From Patescibacteria group bacterium (GTDB lineage: Bacteria; Patescibacteriota; Patescibacteriia; JAGPKW01), in assembly GCA_021734125.1 (NCBI GenBank), contig JAIPJN010000002.1:1-57502 (forward strand): a stretch of DNA of 57,502 nucleotides, in the 5' to 3' direction. How positions within the stretch are numbered: the first letter of the stretch is position 1; each line of letters begins with the position of its first letter. The translations under genes and the position numbers were made by a program. Positions 3,988 to 23,278 of this stretch are shown piece after piece. Under the pieces are notes generated by a model, which made no database searches, was not told the DNA's origin, and saw only the letters and a list, made by a program, of their open reading frames with translations.

Positions 3988-4023
3988 ATATTATAAAGGC
4001 AGAAAATAATATTTATGTATATT

Positions 4024-4050
4024 GGAACGCGTTTCGGCGCGTTCTTTTTA
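4024..4050 (+). terminator. GC-rich hairpin terminator after the SpoIID-like gene
   Basis: ggaacgcg-tttc-ggcgcgttc followed by ttttt. A relative of the ggaacgcgcc palindrome family. Confidence 0.65.
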
Positions 4051-4244
4051 TTTTATAAAATGCAAATTTTTTTATTTGTGTTTATGTATTACATATTACC
4101 AAATACAATTGAAAAAATATATTTAATTTGGTATTATTAAAATAATTTTGTAAAAAAACCAAGAAAGAATTGAATTTTTTCTTTTAAAAGGGAAGATTAA
4201 ATTACATTTCTTTTTGCGATTTATATAAAAATTAAATAAAATTA

Positions 4245-5129
4245 ATGCCTAAAAATAATATTATAACTAAGGCAATTATACCTGTAGGTGGTTTAGGAAC
4301 TAGATTTCTACCAGTTACAAAAGCGCAACCAAAAGAGATGTTGCCTATAATAGATAAACCAGTTATACAATATATAGTTGAAGAGGCAGTAAAATCAGGA
4401 ATAAAAGACATAATACTAGTAACAAACTATAATAAAAGAGCTATAGAAGATCATTTTTCTCCAAATCCAGATTTATTAAATAATTTGAGAGAAAGAAATA
4501 AAACAAAAAAACTTAAAGAAATAGAAAAAATAACAAAACTTGCTAATTTTATATATGTTAGACAAGATGGTCCTTATGGAACAGGGACCCCAATATTAAA
4601 CGCAGAACACTTAATAGGAGATGAACCTTTTGCTGTTTTATACGGGGACGATTTATTTTTATCGAAAAAACCAAGATTAAAGCAATTAATGGATGTTTAT
4701 TATAAATATAAAAGTCCAGTTCTTACAGCTTATGAAGTGGGAGATGAAGAAACAGAAAAATATGGAATTATAGAAGGAGAATCCCAGAAAAATGGTGTTA
4801 TAAAAGTAAATAAAATTTTAGAAAAACCAGGTCCTAAAAAAACTGAATCAAGAATAGCTTCACTTGGAGGATATATACTTACGCCAGAGATATTTCAAAT
4901 ACTTAAAAAAACACCTATTAATAAAAAAGCTAAAGAACTTTTTTTAACAGATGCTATATATGAATATATGAAGAAAAAAAATGTATATGCTTGTAAAATA
5001 GATGGAGAATATTTTGATACAGGAAATCCATTGGAATGGTTAAAAACAAATTTAGCATTTGCAAAGAATAAAGATGGAATGAAAAGAGATTTTAAGAAAA
5101 TAGTAAATGAAGTAATGAATATAAAATAA
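4245..5129 (+). CDS. galU: UTP--glucose-1-phosphate uridylyltransferase
   Basis: N-terminal KAIIPVGGLGTRFLPVTKAQPKEMLPI signature. 294 aa, typical length. Confidence 0.9.
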   Translation: MPKNNIITKAIIPVGGLGTRFLPVTKAQPKEMLPIIDKPVIQYIVEEAVKSGIKDIILVTNYNKRAIEDHFSPNPDLLNNLRERNKTKKLKEIEKITKLANFIYVRQDGPYGTGTPILNAEHLIGDEPFAVLYGDDLFLSKKPRLKQLMDVYYKYKSPVLTAYEVGDEETEKYGIIEGESQKNGVIKVNKILEKPGPKKTESRIASLGGYILTPEIFQILKKTPINKKAKELFLTDAIYEYMKKKNVYACKIDGEYFDTGNPLEWLKTNLAFAKNKDGMKRDFKKIVNEVMNIK

Positions 5130-6096: not shown

Positions 6097-7500
6097 ATGA
6101 GAAAAACCAAAATAATAGCTACAATAGGTCCTAAAACAGATACAGAAGAAATGATGGAGAAATTAATAAAAAATGGAGCTGATGTATTCAGATTCAATAT
6201 GAAGCATGGAAGTGTTGAATGGCATAAAGAAAGAATTCAAAGAGCTAGAAATATTGCAAAAAAATTAAACGAAACAATAGGCATTTTTATAGATTTACAA
6301 GGTCCTGAAATTAGAATAGAGACTAAAAATGAAGAATGTTTATGCATTAGAAAAGGTGCAGAGTTTTTGTTGTCAGATAAATTTTATGATCATATTCCAA
6401 CTGTAAAAGTAAGTGATCCAATTATTTTTAAATCATTAGAAGCAGGAGATCAAGTATTAATAGATGATGGTTTTCAAGAATTTAAAGTAATAGAAAAAAA
6501 TAATAAAGGATTAATATTAAAAGCTAGAGAAAATTATGTAATAGAGCATAGAAAAGGCTTGAATTTACCTGGGAAAAAAATAAAGCTACCTTCTTTAATA
6601 GATGATGATTATGAAAAATTAAAAATGGCAAAAGAAGTTGAGGTAGATTTTGTTGCACTTTCTTTTTGTAGAAACAAAGAAGATATTGATATATTAAAAA
6701 AAGAAATAAAGAAATTAGGACTAGAATTAGGTATAATAGCAAAAATAGAAAACAAAGAATCACTTGAAAATATAGATGAAATTATAAAAAACGTTGATTC
6801 TATAATGATAGCAAGAGGAGATTTAGGAATAGAAAATCCAATAGAAGAAATAGCATATATACAAAAAGAAATAATAGAAAAATGTAGAGAAAAAAATGTT
6901 TCCGTTATAGTAGCAACTCAAATGCTTCAATCTATGGTAAAAAATTCTAGGCCAACAAGAGCAGAAGCTACGGATGTAGCTAATGCAGTTTTTAATGAAA
7001 CTGATGCAATAATGCTTTCTGGGGAAACCGCAATGGGGGATCATCCTATAAGAGCAGTACAAACTATGAATAAAATTGTTGTATTTAATGAAGATAAAAA
7101 AGAAAAACACTTTAGAAATAAAATTTCTTTTGATAATCATACAGAATTGATTATAGAAACAACAGCAAATATATTAAACTCTGATAGAAGTAATAAAATA
7201 GATAAAACAATAGTAATAACAGATAGTGGTTATACAGCAAGAGCTATTTCAAGTCATAGATTAGAAAAAGAAATAATAGCTATAACAAAAAATGAATTAA
7301 CAAGAAATATGCTTAAATTATCTTTTGGTATAGTGAGTCATTTTATAGACTATGAAGATAAAAAAAATAAAATAAAACATCTAATTAATGAGTTGAAAAA
7401 AGCTCAAATAATAGAAAAAGGAAATTCAATATTACTTATTAGTGGGAGTAAATTAGATATTAAAAATGTAGAGAATTCTATAAAAATTTTGAATATATAA
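6097..7500 (+). CDS. pyk: pyruvate kinase
   Basis: The conserved N-terminus MRKTKIIATIGP starts at ATG 6097; the ORF-track start 6037 is a non-ATG upstream extension. Also has the MIARGDLGIE motif. Confidence 0.9.
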   Translation: MRKTKIIATIGPKTDTEEMMEKLIKNGADVFRFNMKHGSVEWHKERIQRARNIAKKLNETIGIFIDLQGPEIRIETKNEECLCIRKGAEFLLSDKFYDHIPTVKVSDPIIFKSLEAGDQVLIDDGFQEFKVIEKNNKGLILKARENYVIEHRKGLNLPGKKIKLPSLIDDDYEKLKMAKEVEVDFVALSFCRNKEDIDILKKEIKKLGLELGIIAKIENKESLENIDEIIKNVDSIMIARGDLGIENPIEEIAYIQKEIIEKCREKNVSVIVATQMLQSMVKNSRPTRAEATDVANAVFNETDAIMLSGETAMGDHPIRAVQTMNKIVVFNEDKKEKHFRNKISFDNHTELIIETTANILNSDRSNKIDKTIVITDSGYTARAISSHRLEKEIIAITKNELTRNMLKLSFGIVSHFIDYEDKKNKIKHLINELKKAQIIEKGNSILLISGSKLDIKNVENSIKILNI

Positions 7501-7504
7501 AGAA

Positions 7505-8179
7505 CTAAACCCCATTTCCAATATAATAACCAATGCCTCTTTTGTTTTTTATAAAACTTTTTCCAGTTTCTTTTTTTAATTTATTTTTTATTTTACTTAT
7601 ATAAACTTCAACTATATTTGAAAAAGGATCAAGATTCATATCCCATATTTTTTCAATTAATAAATCTTTTGATATAACAATATCTTTATTAATTACCAAA
7701 AAATATAATATAGAAAATTCTTTTTTCGTTAGGTCAATTTTTTTAGTTAAATAATAAAGCTGTTTAGAATTATTATTTAAAACCATTTCTTCATGTTTTA
7801 CTATTTTATCTAAAAAAATTTTAGGCCTTCTAGATAAAACATTTACTTTTTCAATTAATTCTGAATTAGAGAAAGGTTTTTTCATATATTCATCGCAACC
7901 AATTCTCAAACAATCTAGTTTATCTTTTAAATCATTTTTTATAGTTAAAAACATTATATAAGAATTTATATTAATACTTCTTAAATCTCTACATATTTCA
8001 TATCCATTTTTGCAGGGGAGGTTATAATCTAATATAATTAAGTCATATATATTTAAGCGAGCTTTTTCAAAAGCATTTTGACCGTTTATACAAGTATCAA
8101 CAGCATGGCCTTCTTTCTTAAGTATAGTGGAGACGAATTTTAATATCTCCTGGTTATCTTCTACGCATAAAATTTTCAT
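7505..8179 (-). CDS. OmpR-family response regulator (receiver + winged helix), no adjacent kinase
   Basis: MKILCVEDN...LIILDYNLP receiver motifs. C-terminal ...RGIGYYI winged-helix ending. Confidence 0.85.
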   Translation of the reverse strand: MKILCVEDNQEILKFVSTILKKEGHAVDTCINGQNAFEKARLNIYDLIILDYNLPCKNGYEICRDLRSININSYIMFLTIKNDLKDKLDCLRIGCDEYMKKPFSNSELIEKVNVLSRRPKIFLDKIVKHEEMVLNNNSKQLYYLTKKIDLTKKEFSILYFLVINKDIVISKDLLIEKIWDMNLDPFSNIVEVYISKIKNKLKKETGKSFIKNKRGIGYYIGNGV

Positions 8180-10586: not shown

Positions 10587-10886
10587 GGAACGCGCCGTGG
10601 CGCGTTCCATCCATTTTAATATTAACGAATTATTCACAAAAATATATTGTAGTGGCCAGCCATGGCTGGCCATGCACATTGTTCGCCCGTTTTATTTCAA
10701 AATAATAAATAAAAAAATAATATTATTTTATAAAATAATGTAGTGGCCAACCATGGTTGGCCATTGAAAATTATGCGTCCATTTTATATTATGTGCCCGT
10801 TTTGTTTAAATATAAAATTAAACAAATATTGTGGGAACGCGCCGTGGCGCGTTCCCATATGATTTATAAAATAATCACAAATATTT
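10587..10886. repeat. cluster of four GC-rich palindromes (B, A, A', B) with conserved flanks
   Basis: ggaacgcgccgtggcgcgttcc at 10587-10608 and 10834-10855. tggccagccatggctggcca at 10653-10672. tggccaaccatggttggcca at 10743-10762. 26-bp tail at 10861-10886. Confidence 0.9.
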
Positions 10887-11147
10887 ATACAAATCGTGTT
10901 TTCCTATTGATATAAATAATATATCTCCATTTTTCATTCTTTCAAAAATAATCCTATATCCAGAAGTTATAGAAATAGACCAAATACCTTGAAATTTTCC
11001 ATGTAACTCATGAAGCCTTAAAGATGGATGTAAAGGATTATCTTTAAAAATTATTTCTTTTTTAATTGCTATATTAAGAATATTTTCAGGTAAATTTTTT
11101 AATTCTTTAACAAATTTTTTTGAATATAAAATTTTATTTATAATCAT
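10875..11147 (-). CDS. type II toxin, RelE/StbE family
   Basis: 90 aa. HELHGKFQGIWSISITSGYRIIF...ISIGKHDLY matches the RelE/ParE-superfamily pattern. Overlaps the upstream antitoxin gene by 4 nt. Confidence 0.75.
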   Translation of the reverse strand: MIINKILYSKKFVKELKNLPENILNIAIKKEIIFKDNPLHPSLRLHELHGKFQGIWSISITSGYRIIFERMKNGDILFISIGKHDLYKYL

Positions 11148-11371
11148 AAAAGTTCAGATAAAGAATTTGCAGATATAGATTCACCTTTTTTATATTCCTC
11201 TCTAGAAGATTTAATAGTTTTTAATAACTCATCTTCAGAAATTAAATCATTATCTAAAGAAAATAAATATTTTACATATGAAGAAACAGAATCAAAATTT
11301 CTTTTTTTTGATTTTTTTTTGATATCTTCAAGAATTTCAGAGGGAAGAGATATGCTTAGGACTTTTCTCAT
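11144..11371 (-). CDS. RHH/CopG-like antitoxin
   Basis: 75 aa. N-terminal VLSISLPSEILEDIKKKSKKRNFDSVSSYVKYL is ribbon-helix-helix-like. Position upstream of and overlapping the toxin. Confidence 0.6.
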   Translation of the reverse strand: MRKVLSISLPSEILEDIKKKSKKRNFDSVSSYVKYLFSLDNDLISEDELLKTIKSSREEYKKGESISANSLSELL

Positions 11372-11404
11372 AATTTTTTATATAAATTTTATTATAATAA
11401 TTAA

Positions 11405-11434
11405 ATTGTATTACATTTGTATTACAGATGTCAA
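11405..11434 (-). promoter_or_regulatory. candidate TA promoter with overlapping direct-repeat operator
   Basis: On the minus strand: TTGACA (11434-11429), an 18-nt spacer, then TACAAT (11410-11405). ttgtattaca is repeated at 11406-11415 and 11417-11426, an 11-bp period. Confidence 0.5.
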
Positions 11435-11483
11435 ATTAATATTCGCTCATTTTGAATAAAAATAAATATCAATAAAATATTTT

Positions 11484-11738
11484 TTGACACAATTTTTTTT
11501 GAATGATATTATAAATCTGCAATTAAAAATGCAAAATTTTAAGATTGAGGTATTTCTTTTTGAAATGCCTCTTTTCTTTTTATTTAATTTTTTTGCACAT
11601 ATTAATAACAATACATATTTTTTTTGCAAAAATAAACATAAAGGGTTAAAATAAAGTTGTTTTAAGCCCAATATTGAGCTTAGAATTAATGGATGTTTTT
11701 TGTATAGAGCATCCAAAAAAGGATGCTTAATTTTTTTA
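11484..11738 (+). promoter_or_regulatory. near-consensus promoter followed by two terminator-like hairpins upstream of hsdM
   Basis: TTGACA 11484-11489, 17 nt, tgaTATTAT 11507-11512. Hairpin gaggtatttc/gaaatgcctc 11547-11571 plus T-run. Hairpin agcatcc/ggatgct 11708-11727 plus T-run ending 16 nt before the hsdM ATG. Confidence 0.5.
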
Positions 11739-11753
11739 TGTTATATAAATAAA

Positions 11754-13265
11754 ATGAATGATAATAAAAATTTAAATTTTGAAACTCAGCTTTTTAAAGC
11801 GGCTGATAAACTTCGTAAAAATATTGATGCTGCAGAATACAAAAATGTAGTTCTTGGACTCATTTTTCTAAAATATATTTCTGAATCTTTTCAAGAACTC
11901 TATGATAAGCTAGCTCAAGATGAATTTTCTGATCCAGAAGATAGGGATGAATATAAAGCAGAAAATATATTTTTCGTACCAGAACAAGCAAGATGGAGAA
12001 ATTTACAGGCCAAGGCAAAACTCCCAACTATAGGACAAGAACTTGATGGTGCAATGGAATCTATAGAAAAAGAAAATTCAGAACTTCGTAATGTACTGCC
12101 AAAAGTTTTTGGAAAACCAAACTTAGATAAAACATCGCTTGGTCAACTTATAGATTTAATTTCAAATACAGAACTTAAAGCAACGAGTGAAAATTCAAAA
12201 GATCTTTTTGGTCGTGTTTATGAATATTTTCTAGGAGAATTTGCTAATGCAGAAGGTAAAAAAGGAGGGCAATTTTATACTCCAAAATCTATAGTAAAAC
12301 TAATGGTAGAAATGATTGAACCATATAAAGGAAAGGTTTATGACCCTGCTTGTGGTTCTGGTGGTATGTTTGTAATGAGTGAAAAATTTGTTTTAGGACA
12401 CCAAGGTAGTATTAAAGATATAAATATTTATGGGCAAGAATCTAATCAAACAACTTGGAAATTATCTAAAATGAATCTTGCTATTCGTAATTTATATTCG
12501 AAAGAAGTTGTTTGGAATACTGAAGGTAGTTTTTTAAAAGACGCTCATCCTGATTTAAAAGCAGATTTTGTATTAGCAAATCCTCCATTTAATCAATCAG
12601 ATTGGGGGCAAGAGTATTTGCAAGAAGATGCAAGATGGAAATATGGATTACCACCTGCCGGAAATGCAAATTTTGCTTGGATACAACATATGCTTTATCA
12701 TTTAGCACCACATGGAATAATGGCAACAGTTCTTGCAAATGGGTCACTTAGTTCCAATACATCAGGAGAAGGAGAAATTAGAAAAAATTTAATACAAAAT
12801 TATTTGGTAGAATGTATAGTTGCTCTTCCAAAACAACTTTTTTATAATACAGGAATTCCAGCCTGTATTTGGTTTTTAAGAAAAGAAAAACAAAGTAAAA
12901 GCAAAGAAATACTTTTTATAGATTCTTCAGAAATGGGATTTATGAAAGACAGAGTACATAGAGAGTTTGTAGATGAAGATATAAATAAAATTTCAGAAAC
13001 TTATCATAATTGGAGAAAAAATTCTGAAAAATATAAAGATATTAAGGGATTTTGTAAATCAGCGAGACAGGGAGAAGTAGAAAAAAATGGATTTGTATTA
13101 ACTCCTGGACGTTATGTAGGGATAGTTGATGCAATAGATGATGGTATTCTTTTTGAAGAAAAAATGGAAAAATTAACAACTACTCTAAAAGAACAGATGG
13201 ATAAAGAAAAAGAAATGAATGAGGAAATAAAAAAACAGTTAGAGAAAATAGGATTTAAGATTTAA
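11754..13265 (+). CDS. hsdM: type I restriction-modification methyltransferase subunit
   Basis: HsdM N-terminal domain (LFKAADKLRKNIDAAEYKNVVLGLIFLKYISE), motif I DPACGSGGM and motif IV LANPPFN. ATG 11754 preferred over the non-ATG start at 11700. Confidence 0.92.
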   Translation: MNDNKNLNFETQLFKAADKLRKNIDAAEYKNVVLGLIFLKYISESFQELYDKLAQDEFSDPEDRDEYKAENIFFVPEQARWRNLQAKAKLPTIGQELDGAMESIEKENSELRNVLPKVFGKPNLDKTSLGQLIDLISNTELKATSENSKDLFGRVYEYFLGEFANAEGKKGGQFYTPKSIVKLMVEMIEPYKGKVYDPACGSGGMFVMSEKFVLGHQGSIKDINIYGQESNQTTWKLSKMNLAIRNLYSKEVVWNTEGSFLKDAHPDLKADFVLANPPFNQSDWGQEYLQEDARWKYGLPPAGNANFAWIQHMLYHLAPHGIMATVLANGSLSSNTSGEGEIRKNLIQNYLVECIVALPKQLFYNTGIPACIWFLRKEKQSKSKEILFIDSSEMGFMKDRVHREFVDEDINKISETYHNWRKNSEKYKDIKGFCKSARQGEVEKNGFVLTPGRYVGIVDAIDDGILFEEKMEKLTTTLKEQMDKEKEMNEEIKKQLEKIGFKI

Positions 13266-13267
13266 AA
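13210..13267 (+). repeat. 58-bp direct repeat, copy 1 (the true 3' end of hsdM)
   Basis: aagaaatgaatgAGgaaataaaaaaacagttagagaaaataggatttaagatttaaaa. Matches 14510-14567 except for 2 nt, exactly 1300 bp apart. Confidence 0.95.
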
Positions 13268-13272
13268 GATAC

Positions 13273-13310
13273 TTGACATAATTGACATAATGTCAACTAA
13301 ATAGTAAAAT
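13273..13310 (+). promoter_or_regulatory. candidate fic promoter overlapping a 15-bp perfect palindrome
   Basis: ttgacataa (13273-13281), then TTGACATAATGTCAA (13282-13296). 17 nt after its TTGACA comes TAAAAT (13305-13310). A related split half-site pair lies at 13313-13337. Confidence 0.5.
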
Positions 13311-13344
13311 AATGGACATAATCGATATAATGTAAACTAATTTT

Positions 13345-14475
13345 ATGGAAAATATTCAGATAGGTAAATATATACAACAACCTAATGATTATAGGGCGTT
13401 TATCCCGAATAATTTTCCGGTGCCTGAAATGCTTAAAATTCCACAAGAATTATTAAATAAAGCAGTTTTAGCTGAAAGGTTATTAGGAAAGTTAGACGGA
13501 GTAACTCAAACTTTACCAGATATTGATTTTTTTATAAGAATGTTTAGTTATAAAGATGCCACTAATTCTTCTCAAATAGAAGGCACTCAAGCTACTATGG
13601 CGGATGCTTTGGAATTATCAGTTAAAATAAATGATAAAGAAACTGATGCAAATGATATTATTTTTTATATAAAAGCATTAGATTACGGTTTAAAAAAAAT
13701 ACAAGAAATACCATTATCCTTAAGATTTATTAAAGAAATTCATAAAGAATTAATGTATGGGGCTAGATCTACTCATTATTCTGCTCCTGGGGAATTTAGA
13801 GCTTCACAAAATTGGTTAGGAGGAGTGACTATAAAACAAGCTTCTTTTATCCCTATTCCTCATGATCAAATGTATGAAAAACTATCTGATTTAGAAAAAT
13901 TTTTACATAATAAAACTTTAACTTTACCAATTATAAATATTGCATATTCTCATGCTCAATTTGAAACAATCCATCCATTTTTAGATGGTAATGGAAGAGT
14001 TGGAAGACTTCTAATAACTTTTTTATTACAATATAATAAAACACTAGAAAAACCAGTTTTATTTTTATCTTCATTTTTTAAAAAACATCAAAAATTGTAT
14101 TATCAAAAATTAAATAATTATCATAATGGAGAAGTTTTTGAGTGGTTAGAATTTTTTTTAGATGGAGTTATTGAAACGGCTAAAGAATCTATTGAAATAT
14201 CTCAAAATGTAAGGAAAATAAAGGAAAAAGATATGACAAAAATTCAATTATTAGGTAAAAGAGAATCAAAAAGTACAATGAAAGTTTTATTTTATTTATT
14301 TTCTAATCCTATTATTACAAATTCTAAAATTGCTGAAGTTACTAATTTATCAAGACAGGGCTCAGTAAATATGAGTAATAGATTAAAAGAATTAGGGATA
14401 TTAAATGAAATACCATCAAAAACCAATTATGATAAAAAATATATTTATACGGAATATTTTAATACTTTTGTTTAA
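13345..14475 (+). CDS. Fic-family protein (Fic core with C-terminal wHTH-like tail)
   Basis: Canonical Fic motif HPFLDGNGRVGR, with SSQIEGT upstream of it as in long Fic proteins. The C-terminus ...SKIAEVTNLSRQGSVNMSNRLKELGIL is HTH-like. Confidence 0.9.
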   Translation: MENIQIGKYIQQPNDYRAFIPNNFPVPEMLKIPQELLNKAVLAERLLGKLDGVTQTLPDIDFFIRMFSYKDATNSSQIEGTQATMADALELSVKINDKETDANDIIFYIKALDYGLKKIQEIPLSLRFIKEIHKELMYGARSTHYSAPGEFRASQNWLGGVTIKQASFIPIPHDQMYEKLSDLEKFLHNKTLTLPIINIAYSHAQFETIHPFLDGNGRVGRLLITFLLQYNKTLEKPVLFLSSFFKKHQKLYYQKLNNYHNGEVFEWLEFFLDGVIETAKESIEISQNVRKIKEKDMTKIQLLGKRESKSTMKVLFYLFSNPIITNSKIAEVTNLSRQGSVNMSNRLKELGILNEIPSKTNYDKKYIYTEYFNTFV

Positions 14476-14509
14476 AAAAATATGTCTAATAGTAAAGAAA
14501 ATACAAATA

Positions 14510-14567
14510 AAGAAATGAATGCAGAAATAAAAAAACAGTTAGAGAAAATAGGATTTAAGATTTAAAA
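14510..14567 (+). repeat. 58-bp direct repeat, copy 2 (orphan copy of the hsdM 3' end)
   Basis: Same sequence as 13210-13267. With an upstream ATG (14482) it forms a 27-codon mini-ORF ending ...EMNAEIKKQLEKIGFKI, which mimics the HsdM C-terminus. Confidence 0.95.
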
Positions 14568-14569
14568 AT

Positions 14570-15022
14570 ATGGAAAAATATTTATTTAATTTAGTAAAAG
14601 ATAATATAGTTTGGTTTGTATTAGTTGCCTTATTTCTACTTTTTATTGTAATTCCCATACAAAGTATAAAAATATTTTCGAAATTAATTAAAAATAATAG
14701 AAAACCTGGGTATGGTGAACGTCTAGCAGATAGATATATTGATTTATATTTAAATAAAGAATCTAGAATTTTTAAGAAAAAAATGAATATTTCCATAAAT
14801 ACAAAATCAAGTATTTTAAGTTTTAATGTTAATGGAATGGGGCAAGTAGATAAAAAATTACAAGAATTAGATTTATTAGAAATAAAAGATAATAAAATTA
14901 TTTTTTCTAAAAATAAAAAAGATAGATTTAAAAATTATATAATTTTTAAATTAGTTAGATTTTATTTAATCAATTTTTTAGGAGATAAAAAAGATTTATA
15001 TAAAATAAATAAAAATGCCTAA
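14570..15022 (+). CDS. hypothetical protein, single N-terminal TM helix (ORF-A)
   Basis: 150 aa. Hydrophobic segment IVWFVLVALFLLFIVIPI. ATG lies 5 nt after the duplicated hsdM stop. Its stop overlaps the next ATG (ATGCCTAA). Confidence 0.6.
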   Translation: MEKYLFNLVKDNIVWFVLVALFLLFIVIPIQSIKIFSKLIKNNRKPGYGERLADRYIDLYLNKESRIFKKKMNISINTKSSILSFNVNGMGQVDKKLQELDLLEIKDNKIIFSKNKKDRFKNYIIFKLVRFYLINFLGDKKDLYKINKNA

Positions 15023-15731
15023 TATAGAAGAAAATACAACTAAAGGAATTAATACAGAAATTAAATATAATTGGCAATTATTTGCAGAAAGTTTTTTAAC
15101 TATTACAAAATGCGGTTGTGAAAAAATTTTGAATGATAATAAAATCGGTATGACAACTGAAGGTTTCGAAGACAGAAAATTAATTATTTCTACTGTATAT
15201 AATTTTAAACACTCTTTAGAAATTATATTAAAAACTTTAATTAAGAATTTTTATCCAGAAAAATTGAAAACTACTCATGATATAGAAAACGTTTTCAAAG
15301 ATATATATCCCACTATTTTTAATAATATTATTTTAAAATATAAATCTAAAAAGAAATTATTAAATAATAATAATTATGAAGATCTATTTGAAGTTACTGA
15401 ATTAACTGAAACCTCTTTAAAAGATAAATTTGTAAAATTACAAGAATTAGTAGACTATTATATTAATATTTCTTTTATAAAAAAAGAAATTATAAGTATA
15501 AAAGATGTAAAAAATACATTATTTAAATATCCAGAACAAAAAGATAAACAAGTATCTTTAGATTATTTACATTTTATGAGAAAAGAAAATTTTGAGGAAG
15601 TTAAGAATATTATTAAAAAAGTTAATAAAGATTGTGATGAATTACTGGGAATTATGAGATTAATTTTAATTATAAATATTTGGTTTAAAAAATTAGAAAA
15701 TTTATCAAATAATTCAGAAAATGAAAAATAA
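15015..15731 (+). CDS. hypothetical protein (ORF-B), no recognisable motif
   Basis: 238 aa. 8-nt overlap with ORF-A and 11-nt overlap with the hsdS start, so translationally coupled. No family signature I can name. Confidence 0.65.
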   Translation: MPNIEENTTKGINTEIKYNWQLFAESFLTITKCGCEKILNDNKIGMTTEGFEDRKLIISTVYNFKHSLEIILKTLIKNFYPEKLKTTHDIENVFKDIYPTIFNNIILKYKSKKKLLNNNNYEDLFEVTELTETSLKDKFVKLQELVDYYINISFIKKEIISIKDVKNTLFKYPEQKDKQVSLDYLHFMRKENFEEVKNIIKKVNKDCDELLGIMRLILIINIWFKKLENLSNNSENEK

Positions 15732-16956
15732 TAAATTTAAAATTCAAAATAAAAATTTCTCTCCAAGTGGTTGGGTGGAGACGACTTTGGGGGAGGTTTG
15801 CGAGATAAATCCAACAGAATCTTTACCAAAAGGAAAAATAGCAAAATGTGTCCCTATGGATTGTATTAATTCTTTCACAAGACAAATTTCAAGATTTGAA
15901 GAAAAAGAATTTAATGGAGGAATGAAATTTAGAAATGGAGATACTTTACTTGCAAGAATTACACCTTGTTTGGAAAATGGGAAAACTGCTTATGTAGATT
16001 TTTTAGATGAAAATGAAATTGGTTTTGGTTCTACTGAATATATTGTGATTAGAGAAAAACAAGGATTGAGTGATAAAAAATTTCTTTATTATCTAGCTGT
16101 ATCTCCAAGCTTTAAAGAAATTGCAATTAAAGCAATGACTGGAACTTCTGGAAGACAAAGGGTTCAAATTGATGTTTTGGTAAATAAAAACTTTCTTCTC
16201 CCGCCTCTCCCCGGACAACAAGCCATCGCTTCTGTTCTCTCGGCTTTTGATGATAAGATTGAATTATTAAGAGAAGAAAATAAAACGCTGGAAGAGACAG
16301 GACAAGTAATTTTTAAAGAATGGTTTGGAAAATATAGTGTAGATAAACCCGAAGAATTACCAGAAGGATGGAGAGTTGGGAAGTTGGGGGAAAAAAATTT
16401 TGCAGAAATTATTGGAAGTGGAATAAATGAATTTGATGGTGAAAAAATATATTTAGCAACAGCTAATGTTTCAGATTCAAATATTACAAATACAAATGAA
16501 AAAATAACATTTAAAGAAAGGCCTTCTCGTGCAAATATGCAACCGATAGAAAAAAGTATTTGGTTTGCAAAAATGCAAGATAGCAGAAAATTATTAATGT
16601 TTGATGATTATTCAGAATTTGAAATAGAAAATTTTATTTTATCAACAGGTTTTGCAGGAATTAAAACAACAGAAATTTCTCATTATTTTATGTGGTGTTT
16701 TATTTTAAGCAAAGAGTTTGATGAATTAAAAAATAATATGGCAAATGGTGCGGTTCAAATAGCAGTAAATAATACAAATTTAGAAAAAATTGAAATTCTA
16801 ATTCCAGATAATGAAACACTTGTAAAATTTAATGAATTAGCAAAACCAATATTTAAAAAAATTTACGATAACAATTCTCAAATCCAATCCCTCGCTTGTA
16901 GTCGTGATGAAATTTTGCCGAAACTCATGGCTGGGATGGTTAGAGTAAATTTTTAA
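15721..16956 (+). CDS. hsdS: type I restriction-modification specificity subunit
   Basis: 411 aa with two target-recognition halves. Conserved spacer region LPPLPGQQAIASVLSAFDDKIELL and C-terminal SLACSRDEILPKLMAGMVRV are typical of HsdS. Confidence 0.9.
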   Translation: MKNNKFKIQNKNFSPSGWVETTLGEVCEINPTESLPKGKIAKCVPMDCINSFTRQISRFEEKEFNGGMKFRNGDTLLARITPCLENGKTAYVDFLDENEIGFGSTEYIVIREKQGLSDKKFLYYLAVSPSFKEIAIKAMTGTSGRQRVQIDVLVNKNFLLPPLPGQQAIASVLSAFDDKIELLREENKTLEETGQVIFKEWFGKYSVDKPEELPEGWRVGKLGEKNFAEIIGSGINEFDGEKIYLATANVSDSNITNTNEKITFKERPSRANMQPIEKSIWFAKMQDSRKLLMFDDYSEFEIENFILSTGFAGIKTTEISHYFMWCFILSKEFDELKNNMANGAVQIAVNNTNLEKIEILIPDNETLVKFNELAKPIFKKIYDNNSQIQSLACSRDEILPKLMAGMVRVNF

Positions 16957-16974
16957 TTTTAACAAGGGAAAAAT

Positions 16975-17847
16975 ATGTCAATTGCTACTAAATTTGAAAA
17001 CCTTTGTAAAAATATACTAATAAGTCAAAATGATGCTGATAAAATTTCAAGTCGTTATAAGGCCATTACAAAAAGACTTAATAAAGATTTTTGGAATACA
17101 GAATCAGAAGAAAGTCATAGTTTATATGTTGGGTCATATGGAAGAGACACAGATATTCATGTAAGTGATGTGGATATGATTTTTCAACTACCGTATTCAG
17201 TGTATGAAACATACAACAATTATCTAGGGAATGGACAATCTTCATTATTACAAGCCGTAAGAACCTCTTTACAAAAAACATATTCAACAACACATATAAA
17301 AGGTGATGGTCAAATTATTGGTATAAATTGGGATGATGGTATTTGTTTTGAAATAGTCCCTTGTTTTATAAATAAAGATGATAGCTATACATTTCCTGAT
17401 AGTAATAATGGAGGTTCTTGGAAAACGACAAATCCTAAGCCAGAAATTAAAGCAATTAGAGAAAAAAATGTTGAATGCAATTATAATCTAAAAAGTCTTT
17501 GTAGAATGATTAGAGCATGGAAAGATAATTGTAGTGTTCCTCTCGGTGGTTTATTGATTGATACTTTTGCATATAATTTTTTGAGTAATTGGCAATATAA
17601 AGATAAATCGTTTTTATATTATGATTGGATGGTAAGAGATTTTTTTGAATACTTAAAAAATCAAAATGAAGATCAAGAATATTGGTTGGCTCCTGGAAGT
17701 AATCAGAGAGTAAATCGCAAAGGTAAATTTAATTACAAAGCAAAACTAGCATATAACACTATTTTGGAAGCTATGAAAGCAGAAGAATATAAATATGAGT
17801 ATACTGCCAATCAAAAATGGAAAGAAGTGTTTGGTTTAAAATTTTAA
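16975..17847 (+). CDS. SMODS-like (CD-NTase-related) pol-beta-fold nucleotidyltransferase
   Basis: GSYGRDTDIHVSDVDMIF (G-S...D-x-D) and a downstream acidic residue in CFEIVPCF. Size and layout match second-messenger oligonucleotide/dinucleotide synthetase domains. Confidence 0.75.
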   Translation: MSIATKFENLCKNILISQNDADKISSRYKAITKRLNKDFWNTESEESHSLYVGSYGRDTDIHVSDVDMIFQLPYSVYETYNNYLGNGQSSLLQAVRTSLQKTYSTTHIKGDGQIIGINWDDGICFEIVPCFINKDDSYTFPDSNNGGSWKTTNPKPEIKAIREKNVECNYNLKSLCRMIRAWKDNCSVPLGGLLIDTFAYNFLSNWQYKDKSFLYYDWMVRDFFEYLKNQNEDQEYWLAPGSNQRVNRKGKFNYKAKLAYNTILEAMKAEEYKYEYTANQKWKEVFGLKF

Positions 17848-17864
17848 TTTTTAAGGATAACAAT

Positions 17865-18419
17865 ATGGAAAAAAATAATTTATCAATTGTAAGACAACAA
17901 TTTGCACAGTGTGTTTTTAATCATAAGATGCACGAAAAAGCTTCTGATCGTTTAGATGCTTTGCAAGATAAAATAAAATGGATAAATATAATACTTTTGG
18001 CTTTGGTTATTGTGTTTCTTATATTACAAATATATTTTCCAGAACAAACTATATTTGGTGGTATTTCAACTGGCATAACTGTTTTTGAAATTTTATATGC
18101 TTTCTTTCAAAAAGAATTTTCTATTGAAGATAGAGCTAAAGAACACAAAAAAATAGCATTACAATATTTAGGGCTTAGAGATAAATATAAAAATTTTGTG
18201 ATTGATATAATGAATGATTTAGAAAGTGAAAAAATAGTATCAAAAAGAGATTTATTACAGGATCAATACCAAATTATAAATAGCCTGTCTCTTCAAACGA
18301 CATATGCAGACTATGAGAAAGCTCAATTAGATTTACTTGGAAAGACAAATAAGGACGAACAATTTACTTGGTCTGATACCGAGATAAATCGTTTTTTACC
18401 AAAAGATTTACATATTTAA
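17865..18419 (+). CDS. SLATT-domain 2TM protein
   Basis: 184 aa from ATG 17865 (ORF-track 17817 overlaps the previous gene). Helical N-terminus, then two adjacent TM helices (WINIILLALVIVFLILQIYF, IFGGISTGITVFEILYAFF), then a helical tail. Sits directly after the SMODS gene. Confidence 0.7.
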   Translation: MEKNNLSIVRQQFAQCVFNHKMHEKASDRLDALQDKIKWINIILLALVIVFLILQIYFPEQTIFGGISTGITVFEILYAFFQKEFSIEDRAKEHKKIALQYLGLRDKYKNFVIDIMNDLESEKIVSKRDLLQDQYQIINSLSLQTTYADYEKAQLDLLGKTNKDEQFTWSDTEINRFLPKDLHI

Positions 18420-18429
18420 AAATTTCACT

Positions 18430-21400
18430 ATGACTACACTAAACGAATCTAATATTGAACAAAACCTTATAGACCTTCTTATAAACCAAGGCTATGAGTA
18501 TTTTTATGGTCCAGACATTGCTCCATATTCTGCAAATCAGCAAAGAGAAAGATTTGATTCAGTAATTTTAGAAAATCATCTAAAAGCTTCTTTAAAAAGA
18601 TTAAATCCAAACATTCCAGAATCAGCAAGAGACGAAGCCTATCAAAATATTCTAAATTTAGGTTCACAGGATTTAATGGCAAATAATGAAAAATTTCATA
18701 ATTTTCTAACAAATGGAATAAATGTAGAATATTTTAATAATGGAAATACCGATAGTGTAAATGTAAAACTTTTTGATATAGAAAATATTGAAAATAATAG
18801 CTTTTGGGTAGTCAATCAATTTGTGATTAAAGAAAATAATAACGAAAAAAGGTTAGATGTCGTAATTTTTGTAAATGGATTGCCTTTAGTTGTTATAGAA
18901 TTAAAAAATGCAACAGATGAAAAGGCAACATTAGAAAGAGCTTTTACACAAATTCAAAATTATAAAAAAGCAGTGCCAAGTATTTTTTACTATAACTCAC
19001 TTTGTATTATTTCAGATGGAATAGATGCAAGAGTTTCTTCAATTTCCGCACAATTTAGTAGATTTCTCGCATGGAAATCACCAGAAAAAAGAGAAAATGG
19101 AAGATTACCAGAAATGCAAATTATGGTTGAAAGAATGTTTAATAAAAAAGTTTTACTTCATTTAATTAAATATAATACCGTTTTTGAACAGGAAGAAAAA
19201 AAAGATGAAAAGACAGGTTTATTATCTGTTGTAAAAATAAAAAAAGTTGCAGCATACCATCAATATTATGCAGTAGAAAAAGCTATAAAAGAAACATTAA
19301 GAGCAACAAAAGAAAAAGAAGGAAATAAAAAAATAGGAATAATTTGGCATACTCAAGGATCAGGAAAATCACTTTCAATGGTTTTTTATGCAGGGCAAAT
19401 AGTAATAGAACCAGAAATGAAAAACCCAACAATCGTAATTTTAACAGATAGAAATGATTTAGATGATCAACTTTTTAATACTTTTGGAAATTGTAAGCAA
19501 CTTCTTCGTCAAACTCCAGTTCAAGCAAAAAACAGAGAACATTTAAAAGAATTATTAAAAGTATCAAGCGGTGGAATTATTTTTACTACTATTCAAAAAT
19601 TTTCTCCAAGTGAAGGAAATATTTATGAAACATTATCAGAAAGATCAAATATTGTTGTAGTTGCAGATGAAGCCCATCGTAGTCAATATGGGTTTAAAGG
19701 AAGAGAGGTAGAGACAAAAGATGGTTCAGAAATAAGATATGGGAATGCAAAATATTTAAGAGATGCTTTACCAAAAGCTTCATTTATAGGATTTACAGGG
19801 ACACCAATCGAAAAAGAAGATAGATCAACAAGAGGAGTTTTTGGAGATGAAATAGATATTTATGATATTAGGCAATCAGTTGATGATGGCGCTACTGTTT
19901 TAATTAGTTATGAATCAAGATTAGTAAAAATTAGAATAGACCAGGAAGCAATAAGTAAAATTGATTATGCTGTAGATGAAATACAAGATGTTACTAAAGA
20001 ACAAATAGAAAAGGCGAAAAAGAAAAATTCAAAAATAGACGCAATCGTAGGACATCCTGATAGACTTAAAGATATTGCAAAAGATATTGTGGACCATTTT
20101 GAAGCAAGACAAAAAAGTTTTGAAGGGAAGGCAATGGTTGTTTGTATGACAAGACAAATAGCAGTAAATTTATATAAAGAGATTATTAATCTTTGCCCAG
20201 ATTGGCATAATGATGATTTAATGAAGGGAAATTTGAAAATTGTAATGACTTCAAGTAGTGATGATCCAGAAAGTTTTCAACCTCATCATACTAATAAGGA
20301 GGATAGAAAAAAACTTGCTCTAAGACTTAAAGATATAAATGATTCACTTAAAATGGTTATTGTTCAATCAATGTGGCTTACTGGTTTTGATGTTCCTTGT
20401 TTACATACCATGTATGTTGATAAAAAAATGCAAGGAGCAAATCTAATGCAAGCAATTGCCCGCGTAAATCGTGTTTATAAAGATAAACCAGGAGGATTAA
20501 TTGTTGATTATATTGGTATTGGACAAGATTTAAGAAATGCAATGAAAATTTATACTTCAAGCGGAGGAGAAGGTGAAGCTGTTCTTGATATTTCAGAAGT
20601 AATTGCAGGAATGAAAACAAAATTTGAAATAGTTGAACAAATGTTTTACGGATTTGATTATAAAGAATATTTTAAAGCAGAAAATAATGAAAAATTAACA
20701 ATCCTTCTTAATGCAACAAACTTTATACTACAAGATGAAAAATTAAAAAATAGATTTATTTCTGCAATTACTGCACTTTCAAAATTTTTTGCAATGGCAG
20801 TACCGAGTTTTGAATCAGAACAAATAAGAGATGAAGTTGCATTTTTTCAAGCAGTAAAAGCTCGTATTAATAAATTCACTCCAAGTGGTGGAAAATCAGA
20901 TAAACAAGTAGAAACGGCGATCAAGCAAATTGTTGAAGAAGCTTTAGCAAGTGATGGAGTTATAGATATCTTTAAAGCATCAGGAATTGAAACGCCTACT
21001 CTTGATATTTTATCAGAAGAGTTTTTGTTGGAGGTAAAAAATATGAAGCAAAAAAATATAGCTTTTGAATTACTTCGCAAACTTTTGAATGATGAAATAA
21101 AAATCAGAAAGATAAAAAATATGATACAAGGGAAAAAATTCTCTGAAATGTTAGAAAATATGATTAAAAAATACCACAATAATCAAATTGATACTGCACA
21201 AGTTATTCAAGAATTATGTGATATTGCTCGTGAAATGAAATTAGAAGATAAAAAAGCAGAAGATACTGGTCTTACTAAAGAAGAATATGCTTTTTATTCA
21301 ATATTAGCAGAAAATGAATCTACTAAATTTTTAGAAGATCAAAAAATGAAAGAATTAATACATATTATTGTAGATATAGTTCGTAAAAATGCTACTGTTG

Positions 21401-21558
21401 ATTGGGAAAAAAGAGAAGATGTAAGAGCAAAACTTAGAATAACAGTGAAAAAAATATTAATGAGATATGGATATCCACCAGATCTTGCAAGAATAGAAGC
21501 AGATAGAGTACTTGAACAAAGTGAATTATTAGCAAGTGAATTAACAAGTAATAATTAG
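18430..21558 (+). CDS. hsdR: type I restriction enzyme endonuclease subunit
   Basis: 1042 aa. N-terminal nuclease region (DVVIFVNGLPLVVIELK), helicase Walker A TQGSGKSLSM, VVADEAHRSQ DEAH box and a C-terminal HsdR domain. Confidence 0.93.
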   Translation: MTTLNESNIEQNLIDLLINQGYEYFYGPDIAPYSANQQRERFDSVILENHLKASLKRLNPNIPESARDEAYQNILNLGSQDLMANNEKFHNFLTNGINVEYFNNGNTDSVNVKLFDIENIENNSFWVVNQFVIKENNNEKRLDVVIFVNGLPLVVIELKNATDEKATLERAFTQIQNYKKAVPSIFYYNSLCIISDGIDARVSSISAQFSRFLAWKSPEKRENGRLPEMQIMVERMFNKKVLLHLIKYNTVFEQEEKKDEKTGLLSVVKIKKVAAYHQYYAVEKAIKETLRATKEKEGNKKIGIIWHTQGSGKSLSMVFYAGQIVIEPEMKNPTIVILTDRNDLDDQLFNTFGNCKQLLRQTPVQAKNREHLKELLKVSSGGIIFTTIQKFSPSEGNIYETLSERSNIVVVADEAHRSQYGFKGREVETKDGSEIRYGNAKYLRDALPKASFIGFTGTPIEKEDRSTRGVFGDEIDIYDIRQSVDDGATVLISYESRLVKIRIDQEAISKIDYAVDEIQDVTKEQIEKAKKKNSKIDAIVGHPDRLKDIAKDIVDHFEARQKSFEGKAMVVCMTRQIAVNLYKEIINLCPDWHNDDLMKGNLKIVMTSSSDDPESFQPHHTNKEDRKKLALRLKDINDSLKMVIVQSMWLTGFDVPCLHTMYVDKKMQGANLMQAIARVNRVYKDKPGGLIVDYIGIGQDLRNAMKIYTSSGGEGEAVLDISEVIAGMKTKFEIVEQMFYGFDYKEYFKAENNEKLTILLNATNFILQDEKLKNRFISAITALSKFFAMAVPSFESEQIRDEVAFFQAVKARINKFTPSGGKSDKQVETAIKQIVEEALASDGVIDIFKASGIETPTLDILSEEFLLEVKNMKQKNIAFELLRKLLNDEIKIRKIKNMIQGKKFSEMLENMIKKYHNNQIDTAQVIQELCDIAREMKLEDKKAEDTGLTKEEYAFYSILAENESTKFLEDQKMKELIHIIVDIVRKNATVDWEKREDVRAKLRITVKKILMRYGYPPDLARIEADRVLEQSELLASELTSNN

Positions 21559-21586: not shown

Positions 21587-22213
21587 ATGAATAAACAAAT
21601 TCAAATCTTATATATTCACGGTGGGGGAACCTTTAAAAACAACGAAGAATACATAGAATATCTAAAAACAAAAGAAATAAAAATAGAAGAAACAGAAAGA
21701 TGGTCTGATGAATATTTTGATAAAAAATTATTAAAAAAATTCAAAATGATAAAACCAAAAATGCCATGCAAAGAAAATGCAAAATACGAAGAATGGAAAA
21801 TACAATTTGAAAGATATTTAGAAAAAATGGATCAAGATTTAGTGTTAATAGGAACATCACTCGGAGGAATATTCCTAGCAAAATATCTATCAGAAAATAA
21901 ATTAAATAAAAACATAATATCAACATATCTAATAGCACCACCATTTGATGCAAAATCAGTGAATGAAGAAGAAGTTTTTGGAGGATTCGAATTAAAAGAT
22001 AATCTAGAAAAAATAGAAGAAAATTGCAAAAAAGTAGTGTTCATGTTTTCAAAAAACGATAATGTAGTTAATATTTCAGCAAAAACAGGGTATCAAGAGA
22101 AATTAAAAAAATCAAAATTCATAGAATTTAAAGATAAAAATGGACATTTCAGAATATCAAAATTCCCAGAAATAATAGAAATGTTAAAAGAGGATTATAA
22201 AAATTTCAAATAA
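21587..22213 (+). CDS. alpha/beta hydrolase, YdeN/RBBP9-like serine hydrolase
   Basis: 208 aa. ILYIHGGG, nucleophile elbow GTSLGG, C-terminal ...NGHF. Lies 28 nt after hsdR with no terminator between. Confidence 0.65.
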   Translation: MNKQIQILYIHGGGTFKNNEEYIEYLKTKEIKIEETERWSDEYFDKKLLKKFKMIKPKMPCKENAKYEEWKIQFERYLEKMDQDLVLIGTSLGGIFLAKYLSENKLNKNIISTYLIAPPFDAKSVNEEEVFGGFELKDNLEKIEENCKKVVFMFSKNDNVVNISAKTGYQEKLKKSKFIEFKDKNGHFRISKFPEIIEMLKEDYKNFK

Positions 22214-22221
22214 ACATCGTA

Positions 22222-22322
22222 GGAACGCGCCGTGGCGCGTTCCACCCAAATAAAAAATAAAATAATGTAGGAACGCGCCGTGGCGCGTTCCTACGTGATT
22301 TATAAAATAATCACAAATATTT
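22222..22322. repeat. two ggaacgcgccgtggcgcgttcc palindromes plus 26-bp tail
   Basis: Palindromes at 22222-22243 and 22270-22291. The tail gatttataaaataatcacaaatattt at 22297-22322 is identical to 10861-10886. Confidence 0.9.
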
Positions 22323-22444: not shown

Positions 22445-23278
22445 ATGAATAATAATGAAGTAGATAAAAACAATAAAATAGCTCTTTTTGAAAAAAAAGA
22501 AATCCGTAAAATTTGGCATAATAACGAATGGTATTTTTCAGTGGTTGATGTAGTAGGAATTTTGACTGATAGTTTAAATTATCAGTCCTCAAGAAAATAT
22601 TGGAATAAACTTTCTCAAAGGCTTCATGAAGAAAATAGTGAAGTGGTGACAAAATGTCACCAGTTAAAATTACTTGCTACAGATGGAAAAATGAGATTAA
22701 CAGATTGTGCTAATACAGAAGGAATATTAAGAATTATTCAATCTATTCCTTCTCCCAAAGCAGAACCGTTTAAAAGATGGCTTGCTAAAGTTGGATATGA
22801 AAGAATAGAAGAAATAGAAAATCCAGAATTAGCTCAGAAAAGAATGAAAAAAATTTATGAAGCTAAAGGCTATCCTGAAGATTGGATAGATAAAAGAATC
22901 CGAGGTATTTCTATTCGTCAAAATTTAACAGATGAATGGAGAAATAGGGGTTTTTCAAATCCAAGTGATTATTCAATTCTTACTGCTGAAATTAGTAAAG
23001 CTACATTTGGGATGACCCCTAGTGAATACAAAAAATTAAAAAATATTCCAGAAAAATCCAAAATAAATCTTAGAGATAATATGACAGACCTTGAATTAAT
23101 TTTTACCATGCTTGGAGAAAGAGTAACTACAGAAATTTCTAAAAAAGAAGAGCCCGATGGAATGGTAGAAAATAAAAAAGTTGCAAAAAGAGGTGGTAAA
23201 GTTGCTGGAGATGCAAGAAAAGGAACTGAAAAAGAAATAGGAGATACAATTATTAATAAGGGGAATTATTTAAATTAA
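22445..23278 (+). CDS. Bro-N domain protein (DinD / phage antirepressor-like)
   Basis: N-terminal FEKKEIRKIWHNNEWYFSVVDVVGILTDS is a Bro-N pattern. The C-terminal part resembles DinD-type proteins. Confidence 0.6.
   Translation: MNNNEVDKNNKIALFEKKEIRKIWHNNEWYFSVVDVVGILTDSLNYQSSRKYWNKLSQRLHEENSEVVTKCHQLKLLATDGKMRLTDCANTEGILRIIQSIPSPKAEPFKRWLAKVGYERIEEIENPELAQKRMKKIYEAKGYPEDWIDKRIRGISIRQNLTDEWRNRGFSNPSDYSILTAEISKATFGMTPSEYKKLKNIPEKSKINLRDNMTDLELIFTMLGERVTTEISKKEEPDGMVENKKVAKRGGKVAGDARKGTEKEIGDTIINKGNYLN

Follow-up and report, generated by a model that had tools for sequence, protein, structure and literature searches.

A two-gene cassette assigned to CBASS, the antiphage systems that signal through cyclic oligonucleotides, was found inside a type I restriction–modification (R-M) operon of a Patescibacteria group bacterium (GCA_021734125.1, contig JAIPJN010000002.1); the whole stretch of contig analysed, 57,502 nucleotides long, is called the window below. 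The cassette lies between hsdS and hsdR on the plus strand and consists of a gene for a cGAS/DncV-like nucleotidyltransferase (CD-NTase) and a gene for a two-transmembrane (2TM) protein of the SLATT_4 family, called SLATT4 here. It is probably an autonomous abortive-infection type I CBASS carried as cargo in an intact type I R-M operon and co-transcribed with it. An earlier reading made without database searches (the sequence-only reading) had described a nucleotidyltransferase–SLATT pair between hsdS and hsdR, and both open reading frames were found at the coordinates and between the flanking genes that it had given, on the plus strand.

The product of the first gene matches the Pfam family SMODS along the entire domain (E 4.6e-54; 183.5 bits against a cut-off of 26.5) and the PADLOC profile Cyclase PDLC00786 over its full length (460.6 bits, E 5.3e-139), and its best NCBIfam match is the CBASS oligonucleotide cyclase model NF041117. 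A profile made from 25 relatives aligned over the full length with the CD-NTase PaCdnD (6p8u, E 3.6e-16). The AlphaFold2 (AF2) model of the cyclase (predicted local distance difference test, pLDDT, 89.7) was matched by Foldseek to PaCdnD with TM scores of 0.81–0.83 and E 4e-12, and the top 50 Foldseek matches were CD-NTases without exception. The pol-beta catalytic layout that had been read from the letters, namely GS, D-x-D and a later acidic residue in FEIVP, was recovered in full, the first two elements in GSYGRDTDIHVSDVDM (residues 53–68) and the third at residues 125–129. Residues G53, S54, D65 and D67 (in the order D65-V-D67) and E126 are invariant in an alignment of 25 sequences with 63–90% identity; D65 and D67 align with the catalytic residues D62 and D64 of PaCdnD, and E126 with its third catalytic Asp. 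The enzyme is minimal, being without a sensor domain. Over 5,500 homologues were obtained at E < 1e-5, with 50–90% identity across many phyla. Identity as an antibiotic nucleotidyltransferase or MNT antitoxin was rejected, since matches were obtained only to CBASS cyclase families and CD-NTase structures. Judged from its sequence and predicted fold, the protein is a SMODS/CD-NTase-type signalling nucleotidyltransferase.

The product of the second gene matches SLATT_4 in Pfam (PF18186; 110 bits, cut-off 27, E 1.3e-31) and in NCBIfam (NF033632; 104.3 bits, cut-off 55), as well as the PADLOC profile PDLC00696 of 2TM CBASS effectors (E 1.2e-36). Hydropathy revealed two hydrophobic helices joined by a loop of four residues, which agrees with the SLATT layout of two adjacent transmembrane (TM) helices proposed before. 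The AF2 model (pLDDT 90.1) is all-helical, with helices at residues 2–57, 63–84, 87–116, 121–141 and 147–158. The N- and C-terminal helical parts are conserved, with numerous polar residues that do not vary, and a cytoplasmic location is predicted for them. Glu75 (nucleotides 18087–18089), in the middle of the second TM helix, is retained in all 36 homologues, whose identity goes down to 39%; an acidic residue is unusual in a TM segment, and Glu75 is a candidate for ion conduction or helix–helix pairing. The gene starts at ATG 17865, and the equivalent Met begins all 36 aligned homologues. The ATG at 17817, a mechanical start that is chosen by some gene callers and that would give a protein of 200 aa overlapping the cyclase, was rejected, as it has no ribosome-binding site and the homologues begin at the downstream Met. 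The distance of 18 nt between the two genes in the sequence-only reading is right as a start-to-stop offset, with 17 nt intervening.

The pairing is conserved: in 146 of approximately 165 loci, the gene next after that of the cyclase encodes a SLATT4 homologue. No match to Cap2/Cap3, HORMA/TRIP13 or other CBASS accessory families was found among seven neighbouring proteins scanned with PADLOC, Pfam and NCBIfam; only R-M, SoFic, PDC-S13 and hydrolase proteins were obtained. The family matches, with E from 1e-31 to 1e-139, are far beyond chance. Because a CD-NTase gene and a SLATT_4 gene are adjacent and accessory genes are absent nearby, the cassette is, by family assignment, a type I CBASS with a SLATT_4 effector, in line with the minimal CBASS logic without Cap2/Cap3 suggested earlier. 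Systems of this class are known and abundant. The membrane effectors, which make up more than 40% of CBASS effectors, include SLATT4 and SLATT6 as listed classes (PMC12480259). Many coliphages are restricted by type I CBASS operons whose effectors are TM proteins, CdnF-SLATT6 among them (bioRxiv 10.1101/2023.05.21.541620). A type I CBASS of a lactococcal plasmid, in which an AGS-C CD-NTase is combined with a PF18186 (SLATT_4) effector of 190 aa, shows antiphage activity with an Abi-like phenotype and is active alone, without co-localisation with other systems (PMC11381338). The statement of the sequence-only reading that experimental support is limited does not hold for the class, given the coliphage results with SLATT6 and the lactococcal results with SLATT_4; it does hold for the subfamily of 290-aa cyclases with SLATT4.

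The host R-M system is complete: hsdM, hsdS and hsdR, with their characteristic Pfam domains, are located on a single strand. The intergenic gaps are 18 nt between hsdS and the cyclase gene, 17 nt between the cyclase gene and the SLATT4 gene, and 10 nt between the latter and hsdR, and this spacing makes it most probable that the cassette is co-transcribed with the R-M genes. No terminator-like site was seen on the plus strand between hsdS and hsdR in a terminator scan. In a consensus scan, strong promoter-like sites were present only at 11484–11512, upstream of hsdM, and at 13282–13310, in the gap between hsdM and the Fic gene; in the region 13311–21558, promoter-like matches reached 9/12 at best, with no such site immediately ahead of the cyclase start. 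Promoter-like sites were no commoner than in shuffled sequence, and the promoter scan is suggestive only.

The comparison covered 164 related loci, of which genomes and metagenomes contributed 80 each and exact look-up 4; they were annotated with iterated hidden Markov models (HMMs) for HsdM, HsdS, HsdR, the cyclase and SLATT4. Removal of duplicates left 146 loci, 72 of which had flanks of 3 kb or more on both sides and were regarded as informative; a cassette was called embedded when type I R-M genes of the same strand were present on both sides. Among the informative loci, 18 were embedded, 8 abutted R-M genes on one side, and 40 were without R-M. A same-strand R-M gene occurred within 100 nt of the cassette in 35 of the 146 loci. 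Embedding is strongly clustered on a neighbour-joining tree without bootstrap, in which clade boundaries are approximate: in the window's subclade each of the five informative loci is embedded, as are 14 of 22 in the window-side clades, compared with 0 of 17 in the 43-member sister clade, the largest clade of close homologues (Fisher p 2.5e-5). This sister clade served as the internal baseline because no published baseline for CBASS embedding was found. The nearest informative neighbour of an embedded locus was itself embedded in 16 of 17 cases, against 3.9 expected by permutation. Certain cyclase lineages are thus near-obligate residents of type I R-M operons. No description of such residence was found in the searchable literature, a scope that does not extend to the original 2015 description of SMODS and SLATT. 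The placement, which the sequence-only reading had called unusual, is a recurrent one in this lineage, and embedding of defence genes is documented in general.

The embedded cassettes do not descend as one inherited super-operon. At a 45% identity threshold, the R-M subunits of their hosts form at least 7 HsdM and at least 9 HsdR clusters, and with C for the cyclase and T for SLATT4 the arrangements M-S-[C-T]-R (as in the window), M-[C-T]-S-R, R-M-[C-T]-S and R-[C-T] were observed, which represent at least two insertion positions. The clearest pair is the window and locus L084, with cyclases 83% and SLATT4 proteins 60% identical, compared with 28% for HsdM and 24% for HsdR; the cassette of L084 is located between hsdM and hsdS. 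Cargo beside the same CBASS cassette also varies: GmrSD (2346–4130) and a 270-aa protein without assignment (6723–7535) in L083, whose cyclase is 90% identical to that of the window; an AAA_13 protein of the PrrC/RloC family (12659–13885) in L084; a second, longer cyclase of 441 aa with a C-terminal extension (10843–12168) in L085; and a different multi-TM effector in place of SLATT4 (3963–4553) in L086. This variation shows modular shuffling within type I R-M operons. Non-embedded members of the window-side clades lie near other restriction genes: L148 has an integrase and type III R-M genes, L100 a C5 methylase, and L005 an Mrr-like nuclease. In two complete plasmids from cultured bacteria, a related longer cyclase is embedded: pAV1812-2 of Aeromonas veronii contains, according to NCBI annotation, genes for an N6-MTase, S, [438-aa NTase, SLATT], HsdR and SprT, and the layout of Arcobacter p121_Kiel_2759 is similar. 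In these plasmid examples (L165 and L166), a SprT-family metalloprotease occupies the position of the hydrolase of the window. In-frame TGA codons occur at invariant Gly positions in the cyclase genes of L004, L084 and L093 (e.g., YV*SYGRD), whose cassettes are among the nearest to that of the window, which points to code-25 organisms of the Gracilibacteria/Absconditabacteria type; code 25 was allowed for in these three loci, in which standard-code gene calling breaks the cyclases. The window itself reads cleanly in code 11.

Persistence of embedding within lineages, and residence with so many HsdM and HsdR families, as if location in type I R-M were itself selected, is what a guard comparable to PrrC would explain: the cyclase would be silent while HsdR2M2S works, anti-restriction proteins (Ocr-, ArdA- or Stp-like) would switch it on, and SLATT4 would kill the cell. 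In parallel, the type IC ecoprrI locus harbours an embedded prrC (PMC12707154), and PrrC is almost exclusively embedded in type I R-M systems according to Payne et al. (bioRxiv 10.1101/2024.01.29.577857), a similar distribution; no homology to PrrC/RloC (AAA_13 ATPase and anticodon nuclease) was, however, detected in the cyclase or SLATT4 with Pfam, PADLOC and NCBIfam. A specific interface between the cyclase and Hsd subunits, conserved across hosts, is unlikely because near-identical cassettes accompany R-M subunits that are just 24–28% identical and occupy different positions (hsdM–hsdS or hsdS–hsdR). Few triggers of type I CBASS cyclases have been identified, which leaves room for such a cue, but the type I CBASS operons tested so far work without an R-M partner, and close relatives of the window cassette (L005, L017, L148 and the whole 43-locus clade) are not embedded. 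We consider this guard unlikely. It also seems improbable that a CBASS lineage has become a dedicated R-M companion whose cyclase is switched on upon loss or inhibition of R-M, or by a restriction by-product, and so punishes anti-restriction; if true, this would be a CBASS analogue of PrrC or PARIS and would show what activates one family of type I cyclases, a cue that has long been sought.

Inverse signalling as in Panoptes would have a constitutively active cyclase whose nucleotide keeps SLATT4 closed until phage sponges or nucleases remove it and the effector opens. Minimal pairs of a cyclase and a 2TM protein with inhibitory signalling do exist, namely, Panoptes mCpol–2TMbeta (PMC12657230, PMC12657218) and likewise minimal diadenylate cyclases (DACs; bioRxiv 10.64898/2026.08.10.743972), and the window cyclase is minimal too, without a sensor domain; it is a CD-NTase, however, and not a Cas10-palm or DAC enzyme, and its effector is an all-helical SLATT_4 protein and not 2TMbeta. 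An activating ligand and an inhibiting one are indistinguishable by sequence, but inhibitory signalling is described in the Panoptes paper as an inversion of the currently known CBASS logic, and inducible SLATT6 type I CBASS operons can be expressed in E. coli and scored for defence. Inverse signalling in the window cassette is very doubtful. A non-defence or regulatory role (e.g., restriction alleviation after DNA damage), or the state of a decaying functionless passenger, which the location inside an R-M operon might allow, is highly improbable: the cassette is widespread without R-M, all family assignments indicate CBASS, and neither gene is disrupted, their catalytic and TM features being the same in relatives of 40–90% identity from many phyla, which indicates purifying selection.

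An autonomous type I CBASS carried as R-M cargo is favoured because the sister clade is never embedded, tested relatives act alone, and near-identical cassettes move between unrelated R-M families. From the family data we infer the following course. The cassette would be transcribed along with hsdM, hsdS and hsdR, and the CD-NTase would stay off until a cue from the phage arises at a late stage of infection. The activated enzyme would synthesise a cyclic di- or trinucleotide, which would bind the conserved, presumably cytoplasmic, helical domain of SLATT_4. The effector would oligomerise via its two-helix hairpin and permeabilise or depolarise the inner membrane, so that the infected cell would stop growing or die ahead of phage release. 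The R-M system would be the first line against unmodified DNA and CBASS the back-up against modified or anti-restriction phages, with embedding providing co-expression and co-transfer.

Several points weigh against the autonomous-cargo explanation or parts of it. The cyclase falls below the equivalog cut-offs of NCBIfam (110.7 against 200 bits for NF041117 and 45 against 200 bits for NF041116), which places it in a subfamily beyond these narrow models; its family-level membership in CBASS is unaffected. No solved structure resembling SLATT4 was found by sequence search or Foldseek (best E 0.44), so that the proposed ligand binding and pore formation are without structural precedent. The product, trigger and effector mechanism proposed for the 290-aa cyclase/SLATT4 subfamily are extrapolated from studied relatives. 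The runs that contain the sequence are all DNA runs from a lake-water metagenome, and no transcript runs were found. Finally, the rate of embedding in the window-side clades is above that predicted from loose clustering in defence islands and could reflect a functional link with R-M.

The positions of the cassette, its functional elements and the surrounding genes are given in Table 1.

Table 1. Features of the CBASS cassette and of the type I R-M operon in the window
Feature	Position	Strand	Evidence and remarks
hsdM	11751–13265	+	Pfam N6_Mtase E 1.5e-109, HsdM_N E 7e-25; first gene of the operon; mechanical open reading frame from TTG 11700
SoFic-like Fic protein	13345–14475	+	PADLOC SoFic E 3.3e-103; Pfam Fic_N, Fic and HTH_24
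orf150	14570–15022	+	N-terminal TM helix; without family match
orf238	15015–15731	+	Without family match; weakly HEPN-related family
hsdS	15721–16956	+	Pfam Methylase_S E 2.8e-18; directly upstream of the cyclase gene
Ribosome-binding site of cyclase gene, AAGGGA	16964–16969	+	5 nt ahead of ATG; sequence read directly
CD-NTase (SMODS-type CBASS cyclase), 290 aa	16975–17847	+	Pfam, PADLOC, predicted fold
Catalytic codons of cyclase gene	GS 17131–17136, D65 17167–17169, D67 17173–17175, E126 17350–17352	+	
Ribosome-binding site of SLATT4 gene, AAGGA	17853–17857	+	7 nt ahead of ATG 17865; sequence read directly
SLATT_4 two-TM effector, 184 aa	17865–18419	+	Pfam, NCBIfam, PADLOC, hydropathy, AF2
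SLATT4 TM helix 1	17979–18038 (residues 39–58)	+	Kyte–Doolittle 2.8
SLATT4 TM helix 2	18051–18107 (residues 63–81)	+	Kyte–Doolittle 1.6
hsdR	18430–21558	+	Pfam HSDR_N, SWI2_SNF2, ResIII, T1R_D3-like, T1RH-like_C, all strong
Alpha/beta serine hydrolase	21587–22213	+	Pfam Ser_hydrolase E 6e-8; 28 nt past hsdR
Best promoter-like site	11484–11512	+	Upstream of hsdM; TTGACA-17-TATTAT with TG; consensus scan
GC-rich palindrome GGAACGCGCCGTGGCGCGTTCC, two copies	22222–22291		Just past the last gene of the plus-strand block; terminator scan
Matching palindrome pair	10587–10608 and 10834–10855		Upstream of the R-M block

The 22-nt perfect palindrome GGAACGCGCCGTGGCGCGTTCC is present in seven copies in the window, with starts at 4024, 10587, 10834, 22222, 22270, 30999 and 51978, against 0 expected at the 24% GC content of the window. 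Two pairs of copies bracket the R-M/defence block, one on each side. The element looks like a repetitive extragenic palindromic (REP)-like element or a bidirectional terminator, and the copies at 22222–22291 are likely to be bidirectional terminators of the operon. The hydrolase gene apparently belongs to the R-M transcription unit because it follows hsdR closely and precedes these palindromes. No cassette-free strain variant with an "empty site" was found among metagenome contigs from four runs, which are colinear with the window; contig "joints" were dismissed as chance matches because they consist of just 20–24 nt on one side, in AT-rich sequence.

Further genes are located in the operon or next to it. 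The SoFic-like protein encoded between hsdM and hsdS is of the Fic/DOC type and ends in a winged-helix domain; in L004 the corresponding place is taken by a Fic homologue, whereas L084 has a RhuM/Fic gene ahead of hsdM. Genes orf150 and orf238 lie between the Fic gene and hsdS, in the region with the lowest GC content of the operon (about 18%), and orf238 overlaps both neighbours by a few nucleotides. Neither product has a match in Pfam, PADLOC, NCBIfam or PHROG. For orf238, a word-indexed search of 5.8 billion proteins gave no homologues, and exhaustive HMMER searches gave about 99 distant relatives. Pfam HEPN was weakly matched by 6 of 30 of these relatives (best E 3.8e-5), and residues H66, E69, K73, H88, D164 and N167 are invariant in the family; the two genes may form a new pair of HEPN-like type that acts in abortive infection. 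A Bro-N protein encoded at 22445–23278 on the plus strand, directly beyond the R-M operon, matches PADLOC PDC-S13 (E 5.8e-118) and phrog_15286 (E 5e-100); a homologue of it is located between hsdS and hsdR in L013. Immediately upstream of the operon, at 10875–11371 on the minus strand, genes for a YafQ/RelE/ParE-like toxin (89 aa) and, overlapping it upstream, an antitoxin-sized protein of 75 aa are present. With SoFic, the TM/HEPN-like pair and the adjacent PDC-S13, the operon of the window is an instance of defence cargo embedded in a type I R-M system.

As routine annotation, the analysis adds a further membrane-effector CBASS of type I; the type I R-M operon in which it lies is rich in defence genes and belongs to an uncultured bacterium from lake water with very AT-rich DNA. 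SLATT_4 effectors are abundant and are without a solved structure, and this small conserved family with confident models is a convenient entry point. The PrrC-like pattern of embedding provides a testable case of mere co-regulation and co-transfer versus functional coupling of restriction and abortive infection, and cultured, sequenced carriers, A. veronii pAV1812-2 and Arcobacter p121_Kiel_2759, exist.

Compared with known systems, the window cassette shares its composition of two genes, a CD-NTase gene and a gene for a small SLATT protein, without accessories, with E. coli CdnF04/CdnF05-SLATT6 and with Lactococcus pUCCL631. The pUCCL631 effector belongs to the same family, PF18186, as that of the window, whereas the E. 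coli effector belongs to SLATT_6, and the AGS-C extension of the pUCCL631 cyclase is absent from the window enzyme. Both tested systems are stand-alone, whereas the window cassette is located inside a type I R-M operon. PaCdnD of Pseudomonas aeruginosa pairs with the nuclease NucC. PaCdnD, from strain ATCC27853, is the closest solved structure (PDB 6P82, 6P8U and 6P8J); it is of similar size, about 300 aa, and its GS and DxD motifs align with those of the window cyclase, although identity is about 20% and the third acid is Asp in PaCdnD and Glu126 in the window. PaCdnD belongs to a type III CBASS, regulated by HORMA/TRIP13 with HORMA-dependent activation, while no HORMA/TRIP13 genes were found near the window cassette and its effector is a membrane protein. 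Panoptes (mCpol and 2TMbeta) is likewise a two-gene system of a minimal cyclase and a small two-TM effector, but it differs in the Cas10-palm cyclase, the beta-barrel C-domain of the effector and inhibitory signalling.

PrrC of the type IC system EcoprrI resembles the window cassette in being an abortive-infection module that lies in a type I R-M locus, is encoded on the same strand as the R-M genes and has mainly embedded homologues. The gene prrC presumably lies between hsdS and hsdR, i.e., in the position of the window cassette. PrrC is an ABC-ATPase/anticodon nuclease (ACNase), in contrast to the CD-NTase and 2TM protein of the window, and there is no homology in sequence or mechanism. PrrC is held latent by the R-M complex, whereas comparative evidence disfavours a specific interface for the window cassette. 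Defence genes embedded in type I R-M, BREX and DISARM operons represent a general pattern, with 96.7% of cargo co-oriented (bioRxiv 10.1101/2024.01.29.577857); CBASS is not mentioned in the main text of this survey or in the supplementary files examined. Another embedded example is TgvAB in VPI-2 of Vibrio cholerae (PMC11411939). TgvAB, BrxU and the PADLOC "PDC" candidates resemble the window cassette in being same-strand defence genes inside multi-gene restriction systems, which together form a layered and complementary defence. They encode mostly nucleases against modified DNA, whereas the cargo of the window is a signalling and membrane-suicide module.

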